A DNA stretch of 64,000 bases from an uncultured Chthonomonadaceae bacterium (GTDB taxonomy: Bacteria > Armatimonadota > Chthonomonadetes > Chthonomonadales > Chthonomonadaceae): NCBI GenBank assembly GCA_963817895.1, contig CAWFQB010000005.1, positions 352,001-416,000 of the forward strand, read 5' to 3'. Each line of letters opens with the position of its first letter. Positions within the stretch are counted from its first letter, which is position 1. Made by a program: the position numbers and the translations under genes. Positions 18,270-63,018 of the stretch are shown in pieces. The notes under the pieces are model-generated. The model had not been told where the DNA came from and searched no databases. It saw nothing but the letters and a program-made list of their open reading frames with translations.

Positions 18270-19247
18270 AATGCGCTGGAATCCTGACCACTGAAGAGTG
18301 GATTATTACCGCAACCCACCGGCAGGATCGGACGTTCTTCCCGCCGCCGGACTACGATCCGCTCGCGCCCACGAAACCGGGCGGATTTCCGACCGAAGTG
18401 CCGACGCCGACGTATGAGATCGTGGTCTTTGAAAACAAATTCCCATCCCTGCGCCGCGACCCGCCCGCGCCCGCCATTGAAGGCACGGATTTCGAGCCGG
18501 TTCGTCCTGCGCAGGGCGTGTGCGAAGTGGTCTGCTACACGCCGCAGGCCGATACCGAACTTGCCAATCTGCCCGTAACCAAAATCGAGCAGTTGATACA
18601 TGTATGGGCCGACCGCTTTGAAACCCTGAGCGCGTATCCGTTCGTCCATTATGTGTACATCTTCGAGAACAAGGGCAAGGAGATCGGCGTCACCCTCGCG
18701 CATCCGCACGGGCAGATTTACGCTTATCCGTTCATCCCGCCCATTCCCGCTACGGAACTGAACGCCGCGCGCAATTACAAGGCAAAGACGGGGCAGAATC
18801 TGTACGCCACGATTGTAGCCGGGGAGATGCAGGACGGCAGGCGCATTGTCACGCAGAACGACCATTTTCTGGCCGTCGTGCCGTTTTACGCCGCGCTATC
18901 CCTACGAGGTTCATATCCTGGCAAAAGGAGATAAACCGGCGATTGCAGACTTCGACGACGCGGAAAAGCACAGCCTTGCCCTGATCCTGAAAACCGTGAT
19001 GGCAAAGTACAACGCCCTGTTCAACCGCTCGATGCCCTATATCATGCTGATGCACCAGCGACCGAGCGACGGCGACAGTTCGCAGTACGATTATTACCGC
19101 TTCCACATCGAATTTTACCCGCCGTATCGCACAGCCGACAAACTGAAATATCTGGCCGGTTCCGAAGCGGGCGCGAACGTGTTCATCAACGACACCCTGC
19201 CCGAAGTCACCGCCAAAACCCTGCGCGACCTGGAACCGCAAAGTTGA
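18262..19247 (+). CDS. galT: Galactose-1-phosphate uridylyltransferase (frameshifts near 18285 and 18890)
   Basis: MSEMRWNP..EW...HRQDRTF, FENKFPSL, FENKG.EIGVTLAHPHGQIY (HPH active site) and KYLAGSE. Confidence 0.92.
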
Positions 19248-19265: not shown

Positions 19266-20243
19266 ATGAAAGACATGAACATTATCAAACAGTGGAACGC
19301 CTTTAGAAAAAGCGTGTTGAGCCGCATCCGAAACATGAGGAGAGGGTCCGTCCGCGCCCCCGAAGGCAGAGCCGCGCTGATTCTCGGAGTCAACTCCGTC
19401 AATGCCCCACAGGGCGAGGAGATTGTCGGCACAGTGCTGCTGAAAGGTGGCGCTGTGCCGCAGCAGAAAAGGCTGCTAGTGATTCGGCTGAAGGAATTGC
19501 ATCAAAACGGCGATTCCTCCGAATGGAAAACCATCAGCGAGGTGGTTACCGCCTATTTTGACCTTGCGCCGGGGCAAACGCGGGAGGTTCCGTTTCGCCT
19601 GTCGATTCCCTTCAAAGCCCGATTGTCGTCCACGAGCAACGGTACGCGGGTCACTGCCGACACGAACCTTCGACTGGTTGCCAAAACAGGCGTAAGCGTA
19701 AACGTTAAAGTCACGCCCCCCTTGGAGATCATGGCGCTGGACACGGCCTTGCAGCAGTTGGGGTTTGTGTCCCGACAATACAATTTTGTCCCGGTAATCC
19801 CGTTCCTTCCTTCCCTCGCATCGCGCAAACGATTGGTGACGAAGTTCTATCACGCGCCTTCTGCCCTGGCCGAGCAAACCACCGGCGTTACGCTGCAATT
19901 GGCGCTCGATGCCAGCCATGTCGCCGGACAGCTGATACTGAACCACCCCAAATCCAACTTGCCGAGCGTTTTGCGGGCTGCAATGGGCGAAAACAAGCAG
20001 ATATTTCCGATTGAGATGCCCCGCAACCTTCTGTCCGGGGGAAACAGCGTTAAGGAAGCCCGAACCAGTTTAAGGAGTCTGCTCAATCAGGCGCTGATTA
20101 TGCCGGATAATCAGGCGAACTGGATGCTGCGCGCTTCAGCCCCGCCGCCCGATGCCGGAAACACCCTCCTCCGCGCCGCCGACTCCACACTGGAAACAAA
20201 CCCCGAACAGCTTCTTCATGCCAGTGAGCAAATCAAAATTTAG
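19266..20243 (+). CDS. SpoOM-like (arrestin-fold) protein with C-terminal triple LLRAS tail
   Basis: GEEIVGTVLLKGGAVPQ and FDLAPGQTREVPFRLSIP resemble the SpoOM N-terminus; the tail matches 61225..63018. Confidence 0.6.
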   Translation: MKDMNIIKQWNAFRKSVLSRIRNMRRGSVRAPEGRAALILGVNSVNAPQGEEIVGTVLLKGGAVPQQKRLLVIRLKELHQNGDSSEWKTISEVVTAYFDLAPGQTREVPFRLSIPFKARLSSTSNGTRVTADTNLRLVAKTGVSVNVKVTPPLEIMALDTALQQLGFVSRQYNFVPVIPFLPSLASRKRLVTKFYHAPSALAEQTTGVTLQLALDASHVAGQLILNHPKSNLPSVLRAAMGENKQIFPIEMPRNLLSGGNSVKEARTSLRSLLNQALIMPDNQANWMLRASAPPPDAGNTLLRAADSTLETNPEQLLHASEQIKI

Positions 20244-20311
20244 AACACATCGGGCAGCAGCGCTATACTGTAAGCGCGACACAGCCATTATGAAGAAAGG
20301 AGCCAGAACGT

Positions 20312-20551
20312 ATGACAGTGACATTGGAAGAAGCCAATACGCAATTTGCCGCATTGGTAGCGCGCGCAGTTTCGGGGGAAGAAGTCATTATCTCCGACGG
20401 ACAGAACGCTCTTGTTCGCATGGTGTCTGTCGGCATCAATAGCGAAAGCAGGCCTCGCCGCGTTCCGGGCAGCGCGAAAGGCAAAGTTATAATTGCGGAG
20501 GATTTCAATGCGCCTCTGCCGGAGGATATTTTGGAGGGATTCGCGGGATGA
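20312..20551 (+). CDS. Phd/YefM-type antitoxin
   Basis: VTLEEA.TQF..LV.RA..GEEVII and R.PGSAKG....EDFNAPLP; overlaps the toxin start (ATGA). Confidence 0.9.
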   Translation: MTVTLEEANTQFAALVARAVSGEEVIISDGQNALVRMVSVGINSESRPRRVPGSAKGKVIIAEDFNAPLPEDILEGFAG

Positions 20552-20934
20552 ACACTCTTCTCGACACGCATAGCTTTCTCTGGTGGGTTACAGATGACCC
20601 GCAACTCTCTCCTCGCGTTCGCAACATTTTGGAAGACGGCGCGAACACGATCTACTTCAGTTCCGCCATTGCGTGGGAAATCGCCATCAAAACGCAAATC
20701 GGCAAGTTGTCCCTGCCTGATTTGCCCGCGCGTTTTATCTCGGAGCAAATTGCCCTGCACGGCTTTGAGGAACTGCCGATAACAACCGCTCACGCGTTGC
20801 AAATTTATACCCTGCCGCTATTACACCGTGATCCCTTTGACCGCGTTCTGGTTACGCAGTGTCAGGTGGAGGGATTCTCTATTCTCACAACAGATAGCCT
20901 GATTGCCCAATATGGCGTATCAACTATCTGGTAA
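20548..20934 (+). CDS. vapC: VapC/PIN-domain toxin
   Basis: LLDTHSFLW, S...WEIAIK..GKL and HRDPFDR. Confidence 0.93.
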   Translation: MNTLLDTHSFLWWVTDDPQLSPRVRNILEDGANTIYFSSAIAWEIAIKTQIGKLSLPDLPARFISEQIALHGFEELPITTAHALQIYTLPLLHRDPFDRVLVTQCQVEGFSILTTDSLIAQYGVSTIW

Positions 20935-21286: not shown

Positions 21287-21412
21287 GGGTAGAGAGTAGG
21301 GAGTAGAGAGTAGGGAGTAGGCGCTGACGACAAGTTCGTTTGAATAAGTCGCTGATTGCACTCAGTAAAAGTGTAAGCCTACTCCCTACTCTCTACTCCC
21401 TACTCTCTACCC
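21287..21412. repeat. Perfect 36-bp inverted repeat built from (GTAGRGA)n heptamers
   Basis: Arms 21287-21322 and 21377-21412 are exact reverse complements; 54-nt loop. Confidence 0.95.
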
Positions 21413-21441
21413 TGCGGGCAAATTCATGGAGGAATACACCA

Positions 21442-22953
21442 GTGTCATTGCAGATCAATACCAACGTGACCGCGCTCAACGCGCTCGACAACCTCAACAA
21501 AGTTTCCGGCAGTGTCGCCAGCAGCATCGAAAAACTGTCTTCCGGCCTGCGCATCAACCGCGCTGCCGATGATCCCTCCGGGCTGATCATCTCCGAGTCG
21601 CTGCGCGCCCAGATTGACGGCCTCAACCAGGCCGTCAGCAACAGCCAGGACGCCACCAACCTGATCAAAACTTCCGAAGGCGCCCTTACCGAAGTGAACA
21701 GCCTGCTGCGCAACGTGCGCCAGCTTGCCGTTCACGCCGCCAACACCGGCGTCAACGACCAGGTAGCGGTACAGGCCGACCAGACGCAGATCAGTTCGGC
21801 CATTGCCAGCATCCAACGCATCGCCGAGCAGACGCAGTTCGGAACCAAGCGCCTGCTCGACGGCTCTTCGGGCATCTCCGCAGCGGTTGTGGATACCAGG
21901 AACGTGGCGGGCATCAGCATCGGCGGCGTGTTCAACAACCTCACCACGCAAAGCGGAACCGTCAACGTGGTTGTCAATTCCGTTGCCACTCGCGCTCAGG
22001 TATCGGGCACGGCTCTGGCGACGTATGCCAGCGTCAACGCCAGCATCAGCACGGTCAACGGCCTGAAAACCGGTAACGGCGGCTCGGTTGTTCTCAACGG
22101 ACAGACCATCAGCATCAGCGGTTCCGATACCGTGCAGACGCTCATCAACAAGATCAACAACCTGGCAAGCACAACCGGCGTATCCGCCGACTTCACCAGC
22201 GGCAACGGTTCGGGCGCTATCGTGCTGACGCAGCAGAACTATGGCGCCAACTTCGCCATCAACGAGAGCGAGTCTTCGCCCCTGCTGACGGGTACGGGTT
22301 CGCCCACGCTGGTCAAGGGGAGCAATGCCACTGTCACCGTTATCGCTTCCGCTCTGGTTAATGGCGTCGTCACCAGCGTCGTCGCCACCTTCACCGGGGG
22401 ACGTTCCGCCACCGACAGCGGGCTGAAAGTGACGGATACCTACGGTAACAGCATCCTGTTGCAGGAAGCGTTCCAGTCTACCTACGTCAGCCCGACAGGT
22501 TCGCCGCAGCTCACGGTTGCGACGGTTTCGGCAGGCAACTTGCAGTTCCAGATCGGCGCCAACGCCGGGCAGACGGTAACTGCGAGCCTGGGCAATGTGC
22601 GCGCCACCAACCTGGGCAATACCAGCGTGGCCGGCTCGAACCTGTCCCTGATTGATGTGACGACCGCAACGGGAGCCACCAACGCGATCACCATCACGGA
22701 TGAAGCGATTGGGCAGGTGACGCAGTTACGCGCCAATCTCGGCGCCTTCCAGAAGAACACGCTCGACTCGACCATCAACTACCTGACGGTGGGCGTGGAG
22801 AACCTGTCCGCGTCGGAAAGCCAGATACGCGACACGAACGTGGCCTCGGAAGTCGTCAACCTGACCAAGAACCAGATCATTCAGCAGGCAGGCACCTCGG
22901 TGTTGGCGCAGGCGAATCAGGCTCCGCAGTCCGTGCTTTCCCTGCTCAAGTAG
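21442..22953 (+). CDS. fliC: Flagellin
   Basis: SLQINTNV.AL, LSSGLRINRAADD and C-terminal S.IRD...A.E...I.QQAG.SVLAQAN; GTG start after GGAGG. Confidence 0.97.
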   Translation: MSLQINTNVTALNALDNLNKVSGSVASSIEKLSSGLRINRAADDPSGLIISESLRAQIDGLNQAVSNSQDATNLIKTSEGALTEVNSLLRNVRQLAVHAANTGVNDQVAVQADQTQISSAIASIQRIAEQTQFGTKRLLDGSSGISAAVVDTRNVAGISIGGVFNNLTTQSGTVNVVVNSVATRAQVSGTALATYASVNASISTVNGLKTGNGGSVVLNGQTISISGSDTVQTLINKINNLASTTGVSADFTSGNGSGAIVLTQQNYGANFAINESESSPLLTGTGSPTLVKGSNATVTVIASALVNGVVTSVVATFTGGRSATDSGLKVTDTYGNSILLQEAFQSTYVSPTGSPQLTVATVSAGNLQFQIGANAGQTVTASLGNVRATNLGNTSVAGSNLSLIDVTTATGATNAITITDEAIGQVTQLRANLGAFQKNTLDSTINYLTVGVENLSASESQIRDTNVASEVVNLTKNQIIQQAGTSVLAQANQAPQSVLSLLK

Positions 22954-23082
22954 ATAGGTAGGCAGGTAGATGAGTAGATAGGTAGATAGGTAGATAGTAA
23001 ACGATAAACTGGTGGGTTTGTTGGTAAACGTTGCACACGCGATAGCCACAATCTACCTATCTACCTATCTACTTATCTACCT
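22950..23082. repeat. Inverted pair of octamer arrays (GTAGATAG)n / (CTATCTAC)n
   Basis: Left arm begins at the fliC stop codon; right arm ends just before the fliD RBS. Confidence 0.9.
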
Positions 23083-23095
23083 TCAAGGAGTTTCC

Positions 23096-25417
23096 ATGAG
23101 CGGCAGCATCAACTTTTCAGGTCTCTCTTCCGGCATTGACAGCGCCAGTATCATTCAGCAGTTGATCGCCGTAGACAAGGCGCCGGAAAACTCCATCAAA
23201 ATTCAGCAGCAGTATCTACAGCAGCGACAAACGGCGTACACCACCATCAGCGCCAAACTGCTCGGTTTGCAGGCGGCCACGTACAGCCTGGACGCCCTGC
23301 GCGCCTTCAATCTTGTGACCGCAACGAGCAGCAGCGCGACGGTTGCGACCGTGAGCGCGCAAACCGGGGCGCAAACCGGGACGCACTCGATCAGTGTGAC
23401 CAATCTGGCGCAGGCGCAGTTGATTGGCACGGGCGCGCAAACCAGCCAGACGAACCCGCTCAACCGGCACGGACAAATCATTATCAATGGCAAGGCCATC
23501 AATTACCAGGATTCCGACAGTCTGCAAACCCTTGCCGCCAACATCAATGCGGCCCAACCGGGCGTCACGGCGTCCATCATTACGCCGACCACCGGCCAGT
23601 ACTATCTCACGCTGGGCAGCACAAATTCCGGCATTCAGGGCAAAATCAACATCAGCGACGCGGGAACGGGAACCCTGCTGGGCGGCACGCTCGGACTGTT
23701 TGCCAATACGTCGAGTTTCGCCCATCCGCTGGCAGGCGGCGTGAACGGCTCCGGCCTGTTTACCGACAGCGCGACCAGCGTAGGCACGCTGGAGGGGCAG
23801 ACATCTCCGGCTGTGGGTAATGTGCAGCTGACAATCGGCGGCGCGATACAGAACGTTTCCATTGACCTGAGCCACTCCCTGAGCCAGATTGCCAGGGACA
23901 TCAATGCTGTGGCGGCGGGAACGGCGCAGGTCGTCACCGTTACTGATCCCATTTCCAACACCAACAAGCAGCAGTTACAACTGAGCAACGTAACGGCGTT
24001 TACGGACAGCAACAACGTTCTTGCCAATCTGGGTATCGCGCAAAACAATCTGGCAACCGGCAATGAACTGACGCTGGCGCAGGATGCGGCTTTTACCATT
24101 GACAACATCAGCGCCAGCCGGGCCACCAACTCCTTTACGGACGCGATTTCGGGCGTGACCATCAATCTGCTGGCTGCCGGCAGCGCCAACCTGACTATAT
24201 CCAGCGACACAGCCACAATCAAAAGCAACATCCAGGATTTCGTCAAGGCCTATAACGACTCGCTCGACAGCATTGACAGTTACTCGCAATACGATTCTTC
24301 CAGCGGCAAAACCGGCCCGCTCTTCGGCGACAGCACCACGCAGAGCATTTACGACAGCCTTGTATCCCTGACCAATGGCACTGTCAGCGGCCTGCCCCTG
24401 AACCTGAGCCTGCTGTCTCAAATCGGCATTACACTGGGGCAGGATGACCGTCTCTCGGTGGATGACGCGACACTCTCTTCGCAATTAAGCGCGAACCTGA
24501 ACGGCGTCGCCAAACTATTTCAATCTTATGGAGTGCCGACGAACCCGACTGTGCAGTTCGTTTCGGGAACCAAAGATACCGTGCCGAGTTCCTCCAACGG
24601 GTATGCCGTGCAGGTATTTACGCCGGCAAGCCAGGCGACGTATACCACAGCGAGCGTACAAACGCAGCCGTTGTCGGCGGATGAAACGCTGACTTTCGCC
24701 GGCCCGCTGTTCGGCACGTCCACAACGGCTACTCCCTTGCAGGGGCGCAGCATTCAGCTTCTCGCGGGCGCGTCCGCGTCCGATATCGTGTCGCAAATCA
24801 ACGCGGACCCAGTTATCGGCGCGCAAATTTCCGCAACCCTGGCTCCGGGCGGGCAGCTGCGCTTTACCAGCAAGCAGTACGGCTCCGCAGCGGATTTCGC
24901 GGTCGTTTCCAGCGCCAGCATCGGGCCGGACACCAGCGGCATGGGAACCACCTCGCATGAGTTTCAGGGCGCGGATGTTGTGGGAACCATCAATGGCGAA
25001 TCGGCGACGGGGATAGGGCAGTTTTTAACGGGTTCGCAGATTGGCGGCAGTTACGGCGCAAACGGGCAAACGTTGGGCCTGCAATTGCGCGTGACGGCTA
25101 CCACGCCCGGCAGTTACGGCAATGTGGTTTACACCGCCGGTGTCGCGAATGTGGTGAAAAACTACATTACCACACAGACGGATGCCTACACGGGCGCGCT
25201 GACAACGGCGGCCAGCGGGCTTCAAACCAACATTGACAATTTTCAGAGCAACATTGACGAGATCGAGGCGAACCTTGCCAACGAACAGCAGCGTTTGAAA
25301 GATCAGTTTACGGCAATGGAAGTGGCGATTGCGCAGATCAAATCGGCCAGCGCGGGACTTGCCTCCCTGTCAACCACCAGTCTGTTGAGCAGTTCCAGCA
25401 GTTCCAGTGGCGGCTAA
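23096..25417 (+). CDS. fliD: Flagellar filament cap protein (long form)
   Basis: INFSGLSSGIDS..II.QL, AQDA.FTIDN, FVKAYN and L..QFTAME.AI. Confidence 0.93.
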   Translation: MSGSINFSGLSSGIDSASIIQQLIAVDKAPENSIKIQQQYLQQRQTAYTTISAKLLGLQAATYSLDALRAFNLVTATSSSATVATVSAQTGAQTGTHSISVTNLAQAQLIGTGAQTSQTNPLNRHGQIIINGKAINYQDSDSLQTLAANINAAQPGVTASIITPTTGQYYLTLGSTNSGIQGKINISDAGTGTLLGGTLGLFANTSSFAHPLAGGVNGSGLFTDSATSVGTLEGQTSPAVGNVQLTIGGAIQNVSIDLSHSLSQIARDINAVAAGTAQVVTVTDPISNTNKQQLQLSNVTAFTDSNNVLANLGIAQNNLATGNELTLAQDAAFTIDNISASRATNSFTDAISGVTINLLAAGSANLTISSDTATIKSNIQDFVKAYNDSLDSIDSYSQYDSSSGKTGPLFGDSTTQSIYDSLVSLTNGTVSGLPLNLSLLSQIGITLGQDDRLSVDDATLSSQLSANLNGVAKLFQSYGVPTNPTVQFVSGTKDTVPSSSNGYAVQVFTPASQATYTTASVQTQPLSADETLTFAGPLFGTSTTATPLQGRSIQLLAGASASDIVSQINADPVIGAQISATLAPGGQLRFTSKQYGSAADFAVVSSASIGPDTSGMGTTSHEFQGADVVGTINGESATGIGQFLTGSQIGGSYGANGQTLGLQLRVTATTPGSYGNVVYTAGVANVVKNYITTQTDAYTGALTTAASGLQTNIDNFQSNIDEIEANLANEQQRLKDQFTAMEVAIAQIKSASAGLASLSTTSLLSSSSSSSGG

Positions 25418-25467
25418 CATATATCCTTGCAACCTGACATCCCCGAACATTCGGAGTAATACAACCC

Positions 25468-26061
25468 ATGGCTCTTGCCGATTCGTATCTCAAATCTCAT
25501 GCCGCAACAAATATCTCCGCGCCGCTGTCCAGAGTAGTGGTAAAGTCCCGAACAGGCAGCGCTTCGCAGCAGTACCAGAAGTCGCAGGTGGAAACCGCTT
25601 CCCCGACCCGGCTGGTCATCATGCTGTATGAGGGCGCGATTCGTTTTTGCCAGATTGCCCTGGATGCAATGGCCGCCCATGACCTGCCCGTTCAGCATGA
25701 GAACCTGCTCAAAGCGCAGCGCATCGTGGCGGAACTGCTCGGATCGCTGAACCGGGAAAAGGGCGGCGAAGTTGCGGACAATCTGGCGCGGCTGTACACC
25801 CATATGCTGGAACAACTGGTCGTGGCAAATCTCCACGATGAGCCGGAAGCCGTAAAACTGGTGCAATCCATGCTGCGCGATTTATGGGCCTCCTGGGTCG
25901 AAGTGGAACGGCTCGCTTCAGAGGGGGCAGGGGAAGAAAAGGAGAAGAGGAGAAAAGGAGAAGAGGAGAACAAGTTCCCGATCCCCAATGTCCAATCTTC
26001 AATCGAAAATCGCCAATCGGCAATTGGCAATCCGTCGCGTTTGGGGAGAGTCAATGCCTGA
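25468..26061 (+). CDS. fliS: Flagellin chaperone
   Basis: Y...QVETASP.RLVIMLYEGAIRF, KAQ.I..EL..SL and A.NL..LY; C-terminus extended by repeat-derived sequence. Confidence 0.93.
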   Translation: MALADSYLKSHAATNISAPLSRVVVKSRTGSASQQYQKSQVETASPTRLVIMLYEGAIRFCQIALDAMAAHDLPVQHENLLKAQRIVAELLGSLNREKGGEVADNLARLYTHMLEQLVVANLHDEPEAVKLVQSMLRDLWASWVEVERLASEGAGEEKEKRRKGEEENKFPIPNVQSSIENRQSAIGNPSRLGRVNA

Positions 26062-57892: not shown

Positions 57893-58633
57893 TTAACCAT
57901 TGCCGCCTGTTCGGAGGTAATCCACGAAGTACGGGGGAAGCCCTGCGGCTACGAGACGAGAGCAGGCCGCTTCGACATCGTAAGCAAGCCGCGCCTGCTC
58001 TACCTGTATGTCCGGGCCGTCAATGGTCAGGATACAGTAACCGGCGCGGCTATCGCCGTCTTTCGGGCGTCCCACGCTGCCAGTATTCACGAAGTCCACG
58101 CCCTCCACAACGCGATGGTAAGGAACATGCGTATGCCCGAAGATGATGATGTCGGCGTGAGCGTCCCGCTTTCCATCCGGCGTAAACTGCTTTAGATAAC
58201 CATCCGAGCGGTTCTCAAAAAGATACTCCGTGTTCGATACAGGGGAGCCGTGACACAGCAGGACTTTCCGACCATCCACCTCCAGCCTGATTTCTCGCGG
58301 CAGTTCACGGAGCCATGCTTTGTTCGCGTCCGTCGTGTGTTCGCGCGTCCACAAAAACGAGAGGTTGCTCATCTCAATGTCGAAAGGCTTCACGTAGTGG
58401 CAGCCGCAGTCATTGAGATTGAAGCCCACGCCCTCATCATAGTTTCCGAGGATTGTGGGGCAGTCCATTGCCTGTATTACGGCCTGCGCTTCGTTTGGCT
58501 GAGAAGCGTAACCGCCCACATCGCCCAGACAGTAGACGCCATCGTAGCCGCCCGCTCTGATATGCGCCGCAACTGTTTCCATCGCGGGCAGGTTGGCGTG
58601 AATGTCGGAAAAAATTGCCAGTCGCGTCGCCAT
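57893..58633 (-). CDS. Metallophosphoesterase (YfcE-like)
   Basis: SDIHAN, CLGDVGGY, GNYD, HGSP, GHTH and NTGSVGRPKDGD; extra DCGCHY motif. Confidence 0.9.
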   Translation of the reverse strand: MATRLAIFSDIHANLPAMETVAAHIRAGGYDGVYCLGDVGGYASQPNEAQAVIQAMDCPTILGNYDEGVGFNLNDCGCHYVKPFDIEMSNLSFLWTREHTTDANKAWLRELPREIRLEVDGRKVLLCHGSPVSNTEYLFENRSDGYLKQFTPDGKRDAHADIIIFGHTHVPYHRVVEGVDFVNTGSVGRPKDGDSRAGYCILTIDGPDIQVEQARLAYDVEAACSRLVAAGLPPYFVDYLRTGGNG

Positions 58634-58657
58634 AAAATCATACTCCTTGACCAGCCT

Positions 58658-59383
58658 TTACCGTGTAGCATGAGCCGTACCCTCAATCGCGTCCAGCGCG
58701 TCGGCTATGTCGTTGGGCGCGCTCTGCGCGTGGTGTTCCCCGCCCCGAATACTCTCATACAGCAGGGAAGCCGCAACCGCGCCAATCACCGGGCCAACCA
58801 CATACACCCAGTAGACGGACAGGGCAGCCATGCCACTGAAAAGCGCGGGGCCGAGCGAACGCGCCGGGTTCATGCTGCCGCCCGTAATCGCGCCGCCGAT
58901 CAGCACGTCAAAGACAACCGTAAGCCCAATCGCCAGACCGGGAACCGCGCCGTTTGCCCGCTTGTCGGTTGCAACCGCAATGATAACGAGCATGAGGAAA
59001 AACGTCAAAATGGCTTCCACGCCCACCGCGCGCAAAATCGGGCCGCTTACGGGAATGTGAACGCCATGCCCACCCCCGAACAGAAGCGCGACAACTCCCG
59101 CCGCCGCAATGCCGCCCGCGAATTCCGCGATCCAGTAGGGCAGGACGTACTTCCACGAAAAACGGCGGGCAACGGCAAAGCCCAGCGTTACGGCGGGGTT
59201 GAAGTGCGCCGAAGAGATGTGGCCGAGCGCGTAGATCATGGCAAGCACAGCCAGCCCGGAAACCCACGCGGCGGCCATCAAACTACTGTCCGCGCCCGGA
59301 AAATACCCCGCTGCCGAAAGCGCGACCGGGGCGAACACGATCCCGAACGTGCCGATGAATTCCGCGACGCAACGTCGCATCAT
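58658..59383 (-). CDS. MIP family channel (aquaporin/aquaglyceroporin)
   Basis: AEFIGTF, HISSAHFNPAVT and GGSMNPARSLGPA. Confidence 0.95.
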   Translation of the reverse strand: MMRRCVAEFIGTFGIVFAPVALSAAGYFPGADSSLMAAAWVSGLAVLAMIYALGHISSAHFNPAVTLGFAVARRFSWKYVLPYWIAEFAGGIAAAGVVALLFGGGHGVHIPVSGPILRAVGVEAILTFFLMLVIIAVATDKRANGAVPGLAIGLTVVFDVLIGGAITGGSMNPARSLGPALFSGMAALSVYWVYVVGPVIGAVAASLLYESIRGGEHHAQSAPNDIADALDAIEGTAHATR

Positions 59384-59412
59384 GCCGTTGTTTATAGTGG
59401 CTCTTGCGCCGG

Positions 59413-59958
59413 TCAGCAACAGCCTGTCCCGCAGCAGCCTGACGTTTCGCCTTGCGCCATCGGAAGAAGCGTGGGAACACACAACTCTTTCGCGAGACAA
59501 TCAGTATGCTTGTAGCCGAGAGTTAGAATGACTGCTTCGGCGGTAACGCTATGGCCTGTCACCGGGTACTGCGAAATGGTCACGTCCTCATACTCAACTT
59601 CTAAGTCAAGGTCTTGATCTTCCGGCAAAACCCTTCTCGCCAGATTCAGCACATCGGCCATTTTGCCCGCGTACAGGCGGTGGTCGGTGTCCGGCCCGAG
59701 CCATACTTGCAGTTGGCAGGTATGCGTGGCGTGAAGTTTCCCGCCGCAATCAATAAATCGCTTCTGCATATACGCGACTTCGGTAATGTGAAAAGCAACG
59801 GGAACCGCTTTCCGGTCGGGCAGGACAAGGCGAAACTGCTTTTCGCGGTGCGCTTCCAGCAGCGCCCTGAACGCGCTGAGTTTCATCACGCCGTTTTCGT
59901 CGGGCGTATCGTTGGTTTCCGGTCGTCGTGCCGTAAGGGGTATTGTTTCCGTCATCAT
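59413..59958 (-). CDS. DUF6428-like protein with a Cys-rich tail
   Basis: FHITEV...FIDCGG, LQVW..D.DHRL, EVEYE, K.TDCLAKE.C; ends GCCGTGCC. Confidence 0.75.
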   Translation of the reverse strand: MMTETIPLTARRPETNDTPDENGVMKLSAFRALLEAHREKQFRLVLPDRKAVPVAFHITEVAYMQKRFIDCGGKLHATHTCQLQVWLGPDTDHRLYAGKMADVLNLARRVLPEDQDLDLEVEYEDVTISQYPVTGHSVTAEAVILTLGYKHTDCLAKELCVPTLLPMAQGETSGCCGTGCC

Positions 59959-60037
59959 TGTGCTTCCTATAGTGGTTGGTTGTTGGGTGTTGATTGCTGC
60001 CGGTATGGATTTTCCGCTCGGAGCTTGTCTTTGTCCG

Positions 60038-60406
60038 TCAGCAGCAGGGACCGCCTGCGTTTTTATCCAAAATTACGCCTGACAGATAGGCCGCAAGCGC
60101 GGCGACGGCTTCCCGGTTCACGCCGCAAATCATGTTCTTGCCCCGGCGCTCGACCGTGATAAGTCTAGCAAGGCGTAGCTCTTTCAGGTGATGCGAAATT
60201 TTTGAGTTGATCTGTTCCGCGCCGGTGACATGGCAGCAGACTTCCCCCACTGTCGGGCCGGAAACGGGGCGCACATCGCCGCTCTCTTCCACCGCTACCG
60301 GTTCGCAGCACGAGCGCAGAAACTCGAAAATATGTAAGCGCGTTGGATCGCCCAACGCTTTGAACATGGCAGCCGCGTCCAGCCCCTCGTTCTCAAGTCG
60401 TATCAT
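60038..60406 (-). CDS. arsR: ArsR/SmtB family metalloregulator
   Basis: FKALGDPTRL.I and ISHHLKELR.A.LI...RRG; Cys pairs SCC, VCC and terminal CC. Confidence 0.9.
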   Translation of the reverse strand: MIRLENEGLDAAAMFKALGDPTRLHIFEFLRSCCEPVAVEESGDVRPVSGPTVGEVCCHVTGAEQINSKISHHLKELRLARLITVERRGKNMICGVNREAVAALAAYLSGVILDKNAGGPCC

Positions 60407-60518: not shown

Positions 60519-61151
60519 ATGAACTATCTGACATTGGGCGACTCGATCAGCATTGACGAATATACTGAAGTGGAGGGCGGTGGGGCGGTGAAGCAGTTCG
60601 CGCGGCTGATACGCGCGGCTGACGTTCAGGATTTTACGCAGGATGGGCGGACAACAAATGGCGTTCTTGCGGATTTGGAGCGCGTTGGGCTTGCGCCCGA
60701 TATAGTCACGCTGACCATTGGCGGCAACGACTTTTTGCAGGCCGTGTTTCGCCACGCCGAGCCGACCGGATTTGTTCCGCCCGATTACTGGACCGAAATG
60801 GCGCAGCCCATTCTTGCCAACCTGAACCGTATCGCCCTGTTGCTGGCTCAATTTCATTGTCCCGTGATTTTGAACACCGTTTACGACCCGACGGACGGCG
60901 AGGATACGCTTTTCGCGCAGATTGGCGTTCCTCCTCCGGCGCGGCAGGCGTTCGACACGCTGAACGGCGGTATCAAATCGCTGGCGCAAACGCATGGCTT
61001 TCTGCTGTCCGATCTGGAAACGCTGTTTCACGGACACGGCCTGCGGTCGCGCGACAGTTGGTTTGTTATGAACATCGAACCGAATTATGGGGGCGCGACC
61101 GCCATTGCCCGTCACTGGTTTCAACTGTTTCGCGCTTCAGGCAGGATTTAA
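60519..61151 (+). CDS. SGNH/GDSL hydrolase
   Basis: LGDSIS block I; TIGGND block III; block V reads IEPN rather than DxxHPN. Confidence 0.82.
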   Translation: MNYLTLGDSISIDEYTEVEGGGAVKQFARLIRAADVQDFTQDGRTTNGVLADLERVGLAPDIVTLTIGGNDFLQAVFRHAEPTGFVPPDYWTEMAQPILANLNRIALLLAQFHCPVILNTVYDPTDGEDTLFAQIGVPPPARQAFDTLNGGIKSLAQTHGFLLSDLETLFHGHGLRSRDSWFVMNIEPNYGGATAIARHWFQLFRASGRI

Positions 61152-61224
61152 TACGTCTTTGTCGAAAAGTGTAGAGCGTAGCGCAGCAACACTGCTGCGC
61201 GAAATTTCAGAAACAGGAATTCGT

Positions 61225-63018
61225 ATGGACTGGCATGAAACCGACCCGCTGCCGTTGCGCGACCCGCAATCGCCGCTCACGCTGAATACAGAGGAGACTA
61301 CGGAAACGGCGGCAACCCCGACGGTTCCTTTCGCGCCACCTGCGGGAAGCAGTTTCGCGTCTCAACCGGCTGCTCTCTGGCATGACATGGCGCAGGGCGA
61401 AAATCGGGAGGCAGGGTCGGCGCAGGCGTTCCCGTACCCGCATCCGATCTATCAATCACCCGTACCCTCTTTTGGCTTACAGTCCCCCGCCAATTCCCAT
61501 ATTCCCCTTGTTGCGCCGCCCGCTTCCGCGTTCGCGCCCGGAACCGTATCGCAAATGCCCTCCGAAACAATGGCGCAGACCGAAACGGTCAACGCGGTCA
61601 TCTGGCAGAAACTGTCGCATCTGGTGCATACGCCGCCGCGCTATGACGGCTTATGGCCTGTTCTGACGTTTGTGGCGAGCGTCGGCCTGTTCGCGTCCCT
61701 GATTTCCGCGAACGTCTGGATGCTGCTGCCCTGGCTGCTGCTGCTCGGCGCATCCCTGAAAATCAACCGCGTCCATGCCGTCAAGGAGCATACCCGCGAC
61801 GCGATCAACATGGCCCCCTTCGATTTGCGCTGGGTCGGGCCACTGGCGCAGGCCATCAACTCGCCGCACAACCGCGTACAGGGCGTGTCCTCGCAAATTC
61901 TCAGCCACCTGCTGCCGCATCTGCGCCCTACAGACGCAGACCTGCTGAACCCGCAGCAGCGGGCCGCGCTGAACCAGAGATTGATCGAGAACAAGCCGCG
62001 CGACAGCGATCTGAACGTCGCCATTCTGGCCGCTTGGGAGAACATAGGCGATCAGGAATCGGTTGCTTATGTGGATCGGCTGGCGCATGGATGGGCGTGG
62101 CCGGGCGGTCAGAAGCAGGTGCAGGAAGCCGCCCAAAAATGCCTGCTCACATTGGAAAAACGGCTGGAAGCGGAACAGGGGACGCGCGTTTCCCATGTCG
62201 AAGCGATTGCCGAAGAGAAAGCGGAAAACACGGTTCAAACGGCGGGAACGCGGGCGGTCAACAAAAAGGTCAGCGAACAGCTTGAAAAACTGGATGAAGA
62301 GCGCCGCAAGCACAGCAACCCCGGAATGCGAATGGGATTTCTGATCGCGTCGTGGGTGTTCATTGTGCCTTTTACCGCGTGGATGGCCTACACGACCTTC
62401 AATACAAACTGGAAACTGGGCGCTTCATGGGCGGTTTTGAGCCTTATTTCCACCCAACTGCACCGCCTCACCCTGTCCCTGCGCCAGTCCGAAGAGGCCA
62501 AAAAACTGGCGCAAATGAACGACGTGCGGGGCGTGGGAACACTGGCCGAAGCGCTGGAATGGCCCGATGCAAGCACACAGCGCGTGGCGGCGGCGGCTTT
62601 GACGCGCCTGCTTCCCCGCATGACCGCGTCCGATGGCACTCTGCTCAATTCCAGACAACGCGCGATTTTGTACAACATCCTGCGCAAGCGCAACGCGCGC
62701 TCACAGGAACCGCTTATCAAAGCCATTCTGGAGGCGCTGAAGCAGATCGGCGACCATGCCGCCATTCCCGCCGTTGAGCGATTGACAGACCTGCCCGCAA
62801 CCTCGCAGCGCAACATCAGAATACGTGATCTTGCCATTGATACCAGGCAATTTCTGGATACAACCGCGCAGCAGCAGAGCATCAGTTCCACGCTTTTGCG
62901 CGCGTCCTCCGCCCACGAAACCCCCTCCGAACTCCTGCTGCGCGGCGCGATGCTGAACCCCGATGAGGCCCCGCAACAACTCCTTCGCGCCAGCGTTTCG
63001 GAAGAGGGGAAGGGGTAG
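61225..63018 (+). CDS. Membrane protein with two TM-hairpin plus HEAT-like modules and a triple LLRAS tail
   Basis: Duplicated D.R.VG.LA.A...LLP.....D..LLN..QRA.L...AIL.A...IGD module; Pro-rich N-terminus. Confidence 0.75.
   Translation: MDWHETDPLPLRDPQSPLTLNTEETTETAATPTVPFAPPAGSSFASQPAALWHDMAQGENREAGSAQAFPYPHPIYQSPVPSFGLQSPANSHIPLVAPPASAFAPGTVSQMPSETMAQTETVNAVIWQKLSHLVHTPPRYDGLWPVLTFVASVGLFASLISANVWMLLPWLLLLGASLKINRVHAVKEHTRDAINMAPFDLRWVGPLAQAINSPHNRVQGVSSQILSHLLPHLRPTDADLLNPQQRAALNQRLIENKPRDSDLNVAILAAWENIGDQESVAYVDRLAHGWAWPGGQKQVQEAAQKCLLTLEKRLEAEQGTRVSHVEAIAEEKAENTVQTAGTRAVNKKVSEQLEKLDEERRKHSNPGMRMGFLIASWVFIVPFTAWMAYTTFNTNWKLGASWAVLSLISTQLHRLTLSLRQSEEAKKLAQMNDVRGVGTLAEALEWPDASTQRVAAAALTRLLPRMTASDGTLLNSRQRAILYNILRKRNARSQEPLIKAILEALKQIGDHAAIPAVERLTDLPATSQRNIRIRDLAIDTRQFLDTTAQQQSISSTLLRASSAHETPSELLLRGAMLNPDEAPQQLLRASVSEEGKG

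Follow-up and report, generated by a model that had tools for sequence, protein, structure and literature searches.

What does a C-terminal tail of three leucine-arginine boxes do on two proteins with unrelated bodies, and what might read it? The question is raised by a 64,000-nucleotide stretch of DNA (the window, G000:C5:352001-416000) from a 7.48-Mb genome that is 81% complete. The first carrier (19266..20243, plus strand) is a protein of 325 aa with 0 predicted transmembrane (TM) segments, which belongs to the Spo0M family by its match to PF07070 (E 8.6e-9; 35.7 bits against a Pfam cut-off of 23). Its triple-LLR tail (20124..20243, plus strand) has boxes at 20124, 20166 and 20211, followed by 5 residues and the stop, and scores 54.9 bits with the tail HMM. 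The second carrier (61087..63018, plus strand) is a membrane-anchored HEAT protein with a duplicated TM-HEAT module; its tail (62893..63018, plus strand; 42.1 bits) has boxes at 62893, 62935 and 62980, then 7 residues and the stop. The HEAT matches of this protein remain below the Pfam cut-off, which several paralogues exceed (HEAT_2/HEAT_PBS). Its true start is likely 61225 (597 aa), because the upstream ATG overlaps the preceding gene; close homologues are 595-621 aa long. An earlier reading made from the sequence only had described three boxes with 9- and 10-residue linkers at both C-termini, and the sequence matches as written. The bodies are unrelated, as that reading also held: one is a Spo0M protein, the other a sub-threshold HEAT protein, and they fall into different body clusters, so that full-length homology, named beforehand as one of the outcomes that would speak against a portable tail, does not apply.

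The surroundings of the two genes in the window are mixed. Just 5' of the Spo0M carrier lies a gene that we take to be galT-like from its translation, split over two frames (18398-19247), which fits the frame splits of the assembly. Directly 3' (20263-20934) lie a probable antitoxin and a PIN-type toxin, the pair of a toxin-antitoxin module, followed at 21340-26061 by genes whose translations resemble flagellin, fliD and fliS; positions 57893-60406 hold what appears, likewise from translations, to be a cluster of ArsR-like regulator, aquaporin-like and metallophosphatase genes.

In the genome as a whole, the tail occurs far beyond chance. Among 83,583 six-frame ORFs, the regular expression of the sequence-only reading matches 17, and in each of these the match lies no more than 60 aa from the stop. 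An iterated HMM recovers 83 carrier ORFs; the distance from tail to stop is at most 60 aa in all 83 and at most 30 aa in 75. Reversed ORFs, searched with the same tail HMM as control, gave 0 matches. The tail is thus as strictly C-terminal as had been claimed, and it is no private feature of two proteins: the 83 carriers are spread over 56 separate loci on all 14 contigs, and degenerate tails are found on 4 further HEAT paralogues. A database search placed the tail within 30 aa of the end in 118 of the best 120 of 152 proteins. Single internal boxes in housekeeping proteins are near the C-terminus in 12 of 43 cases against 21% expected, which is uninformative.

The consensus box reads L-[LV]-R-[AP]-[SA], with the Arg conserved at 97-100%. 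Ser follows in 73% of first boxes. In second boxes, Pro comes after the Arg in 46%, and Ala occupies the fifth position in 64%. Among the 78 complete triples, the period from box 1 to box 2 is 13-16 residues (mode 14, in 35) and that from box 2 to box 3 is 14-18 residues (mode 15, in 57). The exact 9/10 spacing proposed for the tail therefore holds for both tails in the window but not for the family, where it is replaced by these ranges; similarly, the PxQ before box 3 is a property of the window pair, whereas in the family Q directly precedes the box in 67% and P stands three residues before it in 53%. E, Q, A, P and T abound in the linkers. Behind the last box comes a short polar stretch, and a variable extension can reach ~50 aa.

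Clustering of the bodies of the 83 carriers yielded 48 TM-HEAT/HEAT proteins, 15 small two-TM proteins, 3 proteins with a TM segment and a small C-terminal domain, and 17 singletons. Among the singletons are the Spo0M protein, a protein resembling DUF1499 below threshold, one that looks beta-rich, and several fragments. The unrelated bodies that bear the tail in this genome number at least six, and most carriers are HEAT proteins anchored in the membrane; at least 35 of the 83 carriers lie outside the TM-HEAT cluster, most of those without HEAT repeats. A hydrophobic segment is predicted in 64 of 83 carriers. In 43 of 59, the 15 residues in front of the first such segment have a net positive charge; this points to an N-in orientation and, given a hairpin, to a tail in the cytoplasm. 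One carrier was modelled as a confident helical solenoid with the tail as coil (pLDDT ~55). Closest to it in a fold search were alphaRep HEAT and designed armadillo proteins (TM ~0.3); no exchange factor was among the matches listed. A second tail-bearing Spo0M protein was found in a genome of family f3 (L057; PF07070 E 4.3e-11).

Identical box residues shared between body clusters use the same codon in 5,722 of 17,574 cases (0.326), which equals the genome background (0.22-0.36) and therefore argues against recent DNA copying; synonymous sites are saturated, and boxes and spacing are retained. Selection at the protein level, rather than recent duplication, had been proposed from the two window tails and is corroborated by this comparison.

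Known families offer no name for the tail, as the sequence-only reading had supposed: the two window tails match 0 families of NCBIfam, and 46 tails compared with Pfam gave just six single-member matches (E 0.02-0.07). A PDB sequence search with the tail returned chance matches only, and the tail alone had no usable match in the ESM Atlas, which speaks neither for absence nor for novelty. In LPXTG/CTERM-type sorting signals, the motif is followed by a TM helix and basic residues; this class was rejected, given the E/Q/A/P/T-rich linkers and the short polar residues after the boxes. An arrest peptide of RAPP/RAGP type is at odds with the box consensus. In a PADLOC scan of 6 proteins, four LLR carriers had no match, and the Hsp70 discussed below (E 1.6e-4) and one LP carrier had weak partial matches. 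The portions of the literature available to us contain no description of the tail or of an Hsp70-HEAT pairing, nor do the accessible parts of PMC4959169 and PMC7159879 mention either; comparative-genomics supplements may list these genes.

The tail is confined, as far as sampled, to one order. Of 68 Chthonomonadales genomes, 63 are positive with the tail profile and have between 1 and 84 matches: the source genome and all 41 other genomes of family f1, 21 of 24 of f3 and 0 of 2 of f2. The 5 tail-negative genomes belong to three genera. In a phylum sample of 180 genomes from other orders of Armatimonadota, with at most 35 candidates scored per genome, none is tail-positive. The Atlas cluster is most frequent in Armatimonadota. 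In ten low-copy genomes, 45 of 53 ORF matches are HEAT-like (two counted twice); four tail-negative genomes that were tested had no TM-HEAT body and only weak generic HEAT matches. No conserved neighbours of the carriers were found in other genomes.

Phylogenetic profiling, which the sequence-only reading had recommended for finding a partner, points to an Hsp70 without the C-terminal lid. The candidate was picked from a PF00012 search of 5 genomes, being present in 3 tail-positive and neither of 2 tail-negative ones; after this choice, the pattern held in 61 of the other 63. Across the 68 genomes of the order, the lid-less Hsp70 is encoded by 61, each of them one of the 63 tail-positive genomes, and by 0 of the 5 that are tail-negative; it is single-copy in nearly all. 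Among 45 high-quality genomes, 41 have tail and Hsp70 and 4 have neither; the two tail-positive genomes without the Hsp70 are 86% and 67% complete. The Fisher p-values of the association (2e-6 over genomes, 4e-4 over genera) are both overstated, because related genomes are not independent. A one-gene DUF58 tree splits the two tail-negative f3 genera (98/93) without rejecting their monophyly (AU p 0.113), so that as few as two or three separate losses may lie behind the pattern. The co-occurrence seen for the Hsp70 was not shared by three informative control genes; a fourth had no match anywhere and is uninformative. Genes co-lost with the tail other than the Hsp70 may exist. Canonical DnaK is present in the tail-negative genomes. 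Of the earlier proposal, the portable tail with many carriers and unrelated bodies thus stands, while a shell, protease or export machine as its reader gives way to the lid-less Hsp70 as the best-supported partner.

In the Chthonomonadales loci examined, no LLR carrier adjoins the Hsp70 gene (the nearest is 5.3 kb off on the opposite strand), no second conserved neighbour was seen around it, and no J-domain partner of the lid-less Hsp70 was identified.

Two other candidates for an obligate partner were rejected. DUF58 of the MoxR-DUF58-VWA cluster occurs in 3 of 5 tail-negative genomes and was not found in the near-complete tail-positive genomes G013, G014, G030 and G023. A second truncated DnaK (~505 aa), encoded upstream of dnaJ-prmA and two carriers, was not found in tail-positive G029. 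This second DnaK (G000:C14:717393-723012; L013, L087, L107; also G013 L088/L106) is near canonical DnaK, stops before the lid and is followed by dnaJ- and prmA-like genes, after which, in the source genome, come two LLR-tail HEAT genes; Hsp70 ORFs of ~505 aa are also present in G245 and G041. Some f3 genomes have second copies of the lid-less Hsp70 (L143, L144, L145; 44-51% identity), sister to the main clade and with no tail carriers nearby. A Walker-A survey of the genome yielded AAA+ candidates, among them, to judge from their motifs, ClpX, FtsH and a proteasomal ATPase-like ORF; the Walker-A context of an AAA ATPase at G000:C14:118016-119833 presumably resembles that of the proteasomal ARC/Mpa ATPase and suggests a proteasome system.

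The gene of the candidate partner (G000:C5:478287-479934, minus strand) belongs to the same contig as the window, whose end is ~62 kb away. It is in two frames, with one extra base relative to a congener. The split is probably an assembly error, because 13 of 40 conserved genes tested are split and canonical dnaK is also in pieces, and because the gene is intact in both congeners. The protein (~545 aa) exceeds the PF00012 cut-off and has the features that define the superfamily, an actin-like nucleotide-binding domain (NBD) with nucleotide motifs followed by a beta-sandwich domain; residues G10, T11, N13, E190, D212, G214 and G216 of the nucleotide site are invariant. It belongs neither to DnaK (83 bits against equivalog cut-offs of 648 and 823) nor to HscA (103/620 and 96/709 bits, and no lid). 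In the predicted model, the NBD and an all-beta C-terminal domain end in a beta-strand at residue 546 with no helix after it, and align with DnaK residues 1 to ~503 (Z 37-38, ~450 residues). The stop follows directly after the aligned end in 56 of 62 Hsp70 ORF matches at the genome loci; the other 6 are fragments, a second DnaK or short extensions. The beta-domain contains an insertion of ~28 residues, which may take the place of the lid.

In other lineages, genes for relatives of this Hsp70 can neighbour HEAT genes whose products carry different triple tails in an equivalent position. Distant members (35-46% identity) are present in 20 of 180 genomes outside the order. At 5 of 14 distant Armatimonadota Hsp70 loci, 15 neighbouring proteins end in a triple LP[LRIVQ][PA] motif, spaced mostly 14/14 (shuffle control, 4 of 24,040), and two-box variants occur at two more of the 14. 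Among 80 metagenome Hsp70 loci, HEAT neighbours are of LP type at 7 and of GxLSL type at 9. A TM segment is found in 14 of 14 GxLSL carriers; relatives of one GxLSL-clade Hsp70 are mainly Acidobacteriota by database names. For 12 of 14 GxLSL carriers, the HEAT-cap profile of the LLR family stops 3-4 residues short of the first box, and for 11 of 21 LP carriers it ends no more than 6 residues from the tail, with low scores in both. Compared profile to profile, the LLR and LP tails show little similarity (probability 4%, E 0.01). In a FastTree tree of 65 Hsp70 rows, made without partial sequences and without many of the redundant rows of the LLR clade and of tail-less loci, LLR, LP and GxLSL form separate clades (support 1.0, 0.976 and 1.0), so that the tail type follows the Hsp70 clade; the LP and GxLSL clades also include 5 and 3 loci without a visible tail.

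The LP profile is positive in 18 of 201 genomes of the phylum, none of them in Chthonomonadales. Outside the order, the Hsp70 occurs in 14 of 18 LP-tail genomes, 5 of these overlaps by construction because they were used to build the profile, versus 6 of 162 genomes without the tail. This link is strong but not absolute, because 4 genomes have LP tails without a detectable Hsp70 (98, 96, 94 and 86% complete; three rechecked with a positive control) and 6 have the Hsp70 without LP tails; in five of the latter, the GxLSL profile, for which there was no positive control, had no match. A large clade of lid-less Hsp70s (L219-L262, 27-33% identity), with no HEAT-tail neighbours detected, presumably resembles cyanobacterial Hsp70-like proteins. 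At L146 (G093:C502), a HEAT gene directly behind a lid-less Hsp70 carries two L-x-L-x-E-P boxes, possibly a fourth tail type.

The substrate groove may differ between the clades in a corresponding manner. In a low-identity alignment, with E. coli DnaK numbering, E424 is present in 14 of 14 LLR and 13 of 13 LP but 0 of 7 GxLSL Hsp70s; an Arg in the motif is possible in the LLR and LP clades, the two that keep E424. At the position of DnaK V436, the same low-identity alignment has Phe in 14 of 14 LLR-clade Hsp70s, and LP-clade members have Met, Val or Ile there. In DnaK, V436F lowers peptide affinity 40-fold according to the available part of PMC8215388, and because of this the LLR-clade groove may not bind canonically.

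Taken with the co-occurrence and with the gene neighbourhood in the homologous systems, on which the link to the Hsp70 is based, the triple-LLR tail is probably a portable, multivalent docking tag for the dedicated lid-less Hsp70. The predicted-disordered tail would dock into the substrate-binding beta-domain of the Hsp70 encoded elsewhere in the genome, each box presumably entering the groove as a pseudo-substrate, and docking would recruit an ATP-driven chaperone to dozens of unrelated, mostly membrane-anchored proteins. In Chthonomonadales, an ancestral Hsp70-HEAT cluster was apparently broken up and the tag spread to new bodies; such a break-up would imply that the tag works in trans. Removal of the lid speeds the on- and off-rates of DnaK 10-100-fold (accessible text of PMC7083937), which would explain why there are three boxes. 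After docking, the two likeliest uses are disassembly or release, comparable to Hsc70 on the clathrin tail, and delivery of the Hsp70 to targets, which would be held by the variable HEAT surface. A wider scheme is conceivable, although we would sooner bet against it: one lid-less Hsp70 would read a portable tag whose dialects LLR, LPxP and GxLSL co-evolved with the groove in several lineages, tagged membrane HEAT proteins would be interchangeable target-recognition modules directing Hsp70 force at specific membrane or incoming proteins, in a manner comparable to Hsc70 on clathrin tails, and any gene gaining the 45-residue tail would join.

The HEAT body rather than the tail could be what works with the Hsp70, for example as a Fes1/HspBP1-like exchange factor, with a third, co-lost component reading the tail. 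The alphaRep-like HEAT solenoids that make up 48 of the 83 carriers are compatible with this, armadillo-type exchange factors exist (PMC6615629, as far as available), and a genome that has lost the Hsp70 has lost bodies and tails with it, which leaves the three indistinguishable by profiling. Nevertheless, the tail is kept on the carriers outside the TM-HEAT cluster, mostly devoid of repeats, what changes with the Hsp70 clade is tail type and not body type, and no second conserved neighbour was seen around carriers or Hsp70 gene; this explanation is therefore considered unlikely. Self-association, in which the tail binds the HEAT groove or tails of other carriers and builds a membrane network by SHOCT-like oligomerisation, would suit a multivalent tail on tandem-arrayed membrane paralogues, and all strong HEAT-cap homologues in the genome but one keep at least a degenerate in-frame tail. 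It is given a small chance only, as in the monomer model the tail is neither folded with confidence nor packed against the body that bears it, and joint loss with a separate single-copy Hsp70 would go unexplained.

Smaller still is the chance that the boxes are cleavage, phosphorylation or degradation sites for a general protease, a kinase or canonical DnaK. The near-invariant Arg and the Ser that follows in most first boxes could be read in this way, but the Pro after Arg and the fifth-position Ala of second boxes, against the preferences of general proteases and kinases, fit neither cleavage nor a phosphosite. Such boxes, moreover, need not be terminal, and canonical DnaK persists where the tail is missing, although Leu-rich cores are typical of DnaK sites (PMC7083937, in the part available). 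That the tail is a passenger of little function, the end of an expanded HEAT family recombined onto other genes, recalls the short fragments among the carriers (array at C4:40-51 kb) but is scarcely credible and largely refuted by the codon comparison, with boxes and spacing kept at saturated synonymous sites and the tail persisting on Spo0M proteins of two families and across 63 genomes.

C-terminal tags with one dedicated reader are familiar from LPXTG/sortase and PEP-CTERM/exosortase, and the SHOCT domain is a further C-terminal module. Like these, the LLR tail is a portable module at the C-terminus of unrelated proteins, restricted to one lineage and accompanied by a single co-occurring gene; unlike the sortase and exosortase tags, it has no TM helix or basic cluster, is likely cytoplasmic, has three repeats and matches no family, and its candidate reader is a chaperone, whereas a sortase-type reader is a transpeptidase.

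By analogy, docking onto the lid-less Hsp70 would be a pairing of a specialised Hsp70 with its cognate motif that works like HscA-LPPVK or Ssz1-Zuo1 and belongs to neither family. Ssz1, which shares the lack of an SBD-alpha lid with the Hsp70 described here, binds the LP-motif of Zuo1 as a pseudo-substrate (available text of PMC7083937), and their complex (PDB 6sr6) is among the structures listed for the Hsp70 model. Ssz1, of the eukaryotic ribosome-associated complex, lacks ATP hydrolysis and is paired with one J-domain protein, whose motif is single and N-terminal (PMC7083937). Here, the ATPase motifs are conserved, with the residues aligned to catalytic positions pointing away from an Ssz1-like lack of hydrolysis, and the motif is C-terminal, triple and on up to ~85 proteins per genome. 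HscA, which binds only LPPVK of IscU in the portion of PMC8215388 consulted, and the LLR-clade Hsp70 would be alike as specialised bacterial Hsp70s with a narrow motif (a candidate here) and a bulky residue at the V436 position; unlike the latter, HscA keeps its lid and has one known client and a dedicated J-protein (same source, in part).

Hsc70 and the QLMLT site of the clathrin heavy chain share with the proposed docking pair a short site in a flexible C-terminal tail, a helical scaffold and a membrane, and Hsc70 there drives ATP-dependent disassembly; the system differs in being eukaryotic, lidded and auxilin-recruited, with one site per chain (PMC4436892, in part), and coat formation by the carriers is unsupported. 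Fes1/HspBP1 resemble the carriers in joining a helical-repeat body to a disordered segment, which in their case occupies the Hsp70 substrate site (parts of PMC7083937 and PMC6615629); these factors are few and soluble, with the segment at the N-terminus, whereas among the carriers many are membrane proteins and many lack repeats. StkA of Myxococcus xanthus, a 540-residue Hsp70-like protein of a regulatory pathway that is not heat-induced, is similar by description only, and its neighbours described in the available text are not HEAT proteins (PMC4319316).

The bacterial Hsp70 types in the review sections available are DnaK, HscA and HscC, drawn with a lid, HscA having one known client. If the docking reading is true, a lid-less Hsp70 whose portable tag is carried by dozens of membrane proteins would add a fourth, programmable bacterial mode, and a shared partner would be assigned to many hypothetical proteins of a little-studied phylum. 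The natural tag-groove pairs could then serve for testing the evolution of Hsp70 specificity and, possibly, as an orthogonal chaperone-recruiting tag.

Several carriers stand out by their genomic arrangement. Four TM-HEAT carriers are inserted between MoxR and DUF58 of the MoxR-DUF58-VWA cluster (L003, G000:C12:12448-20510), with a fifth, degenerate-tail carrier just upstream. One ORF combines zinc-dehydrogenase domains with a TM-HEAT carrier (L016, G000:C11:92761-95469), either a real fusion or an assembly artefact. A small soluble protein of G014 (L036:1474-1893), without a Pfam match, has a two-box tail on a body unlike that of other carriers. In L002 (G000:C4:38000-54000), small two-TM carriers and fragments alternate with ankyrin-repeat genes, an array that looks like a fast-turnover cassette region or an immunity-type array.
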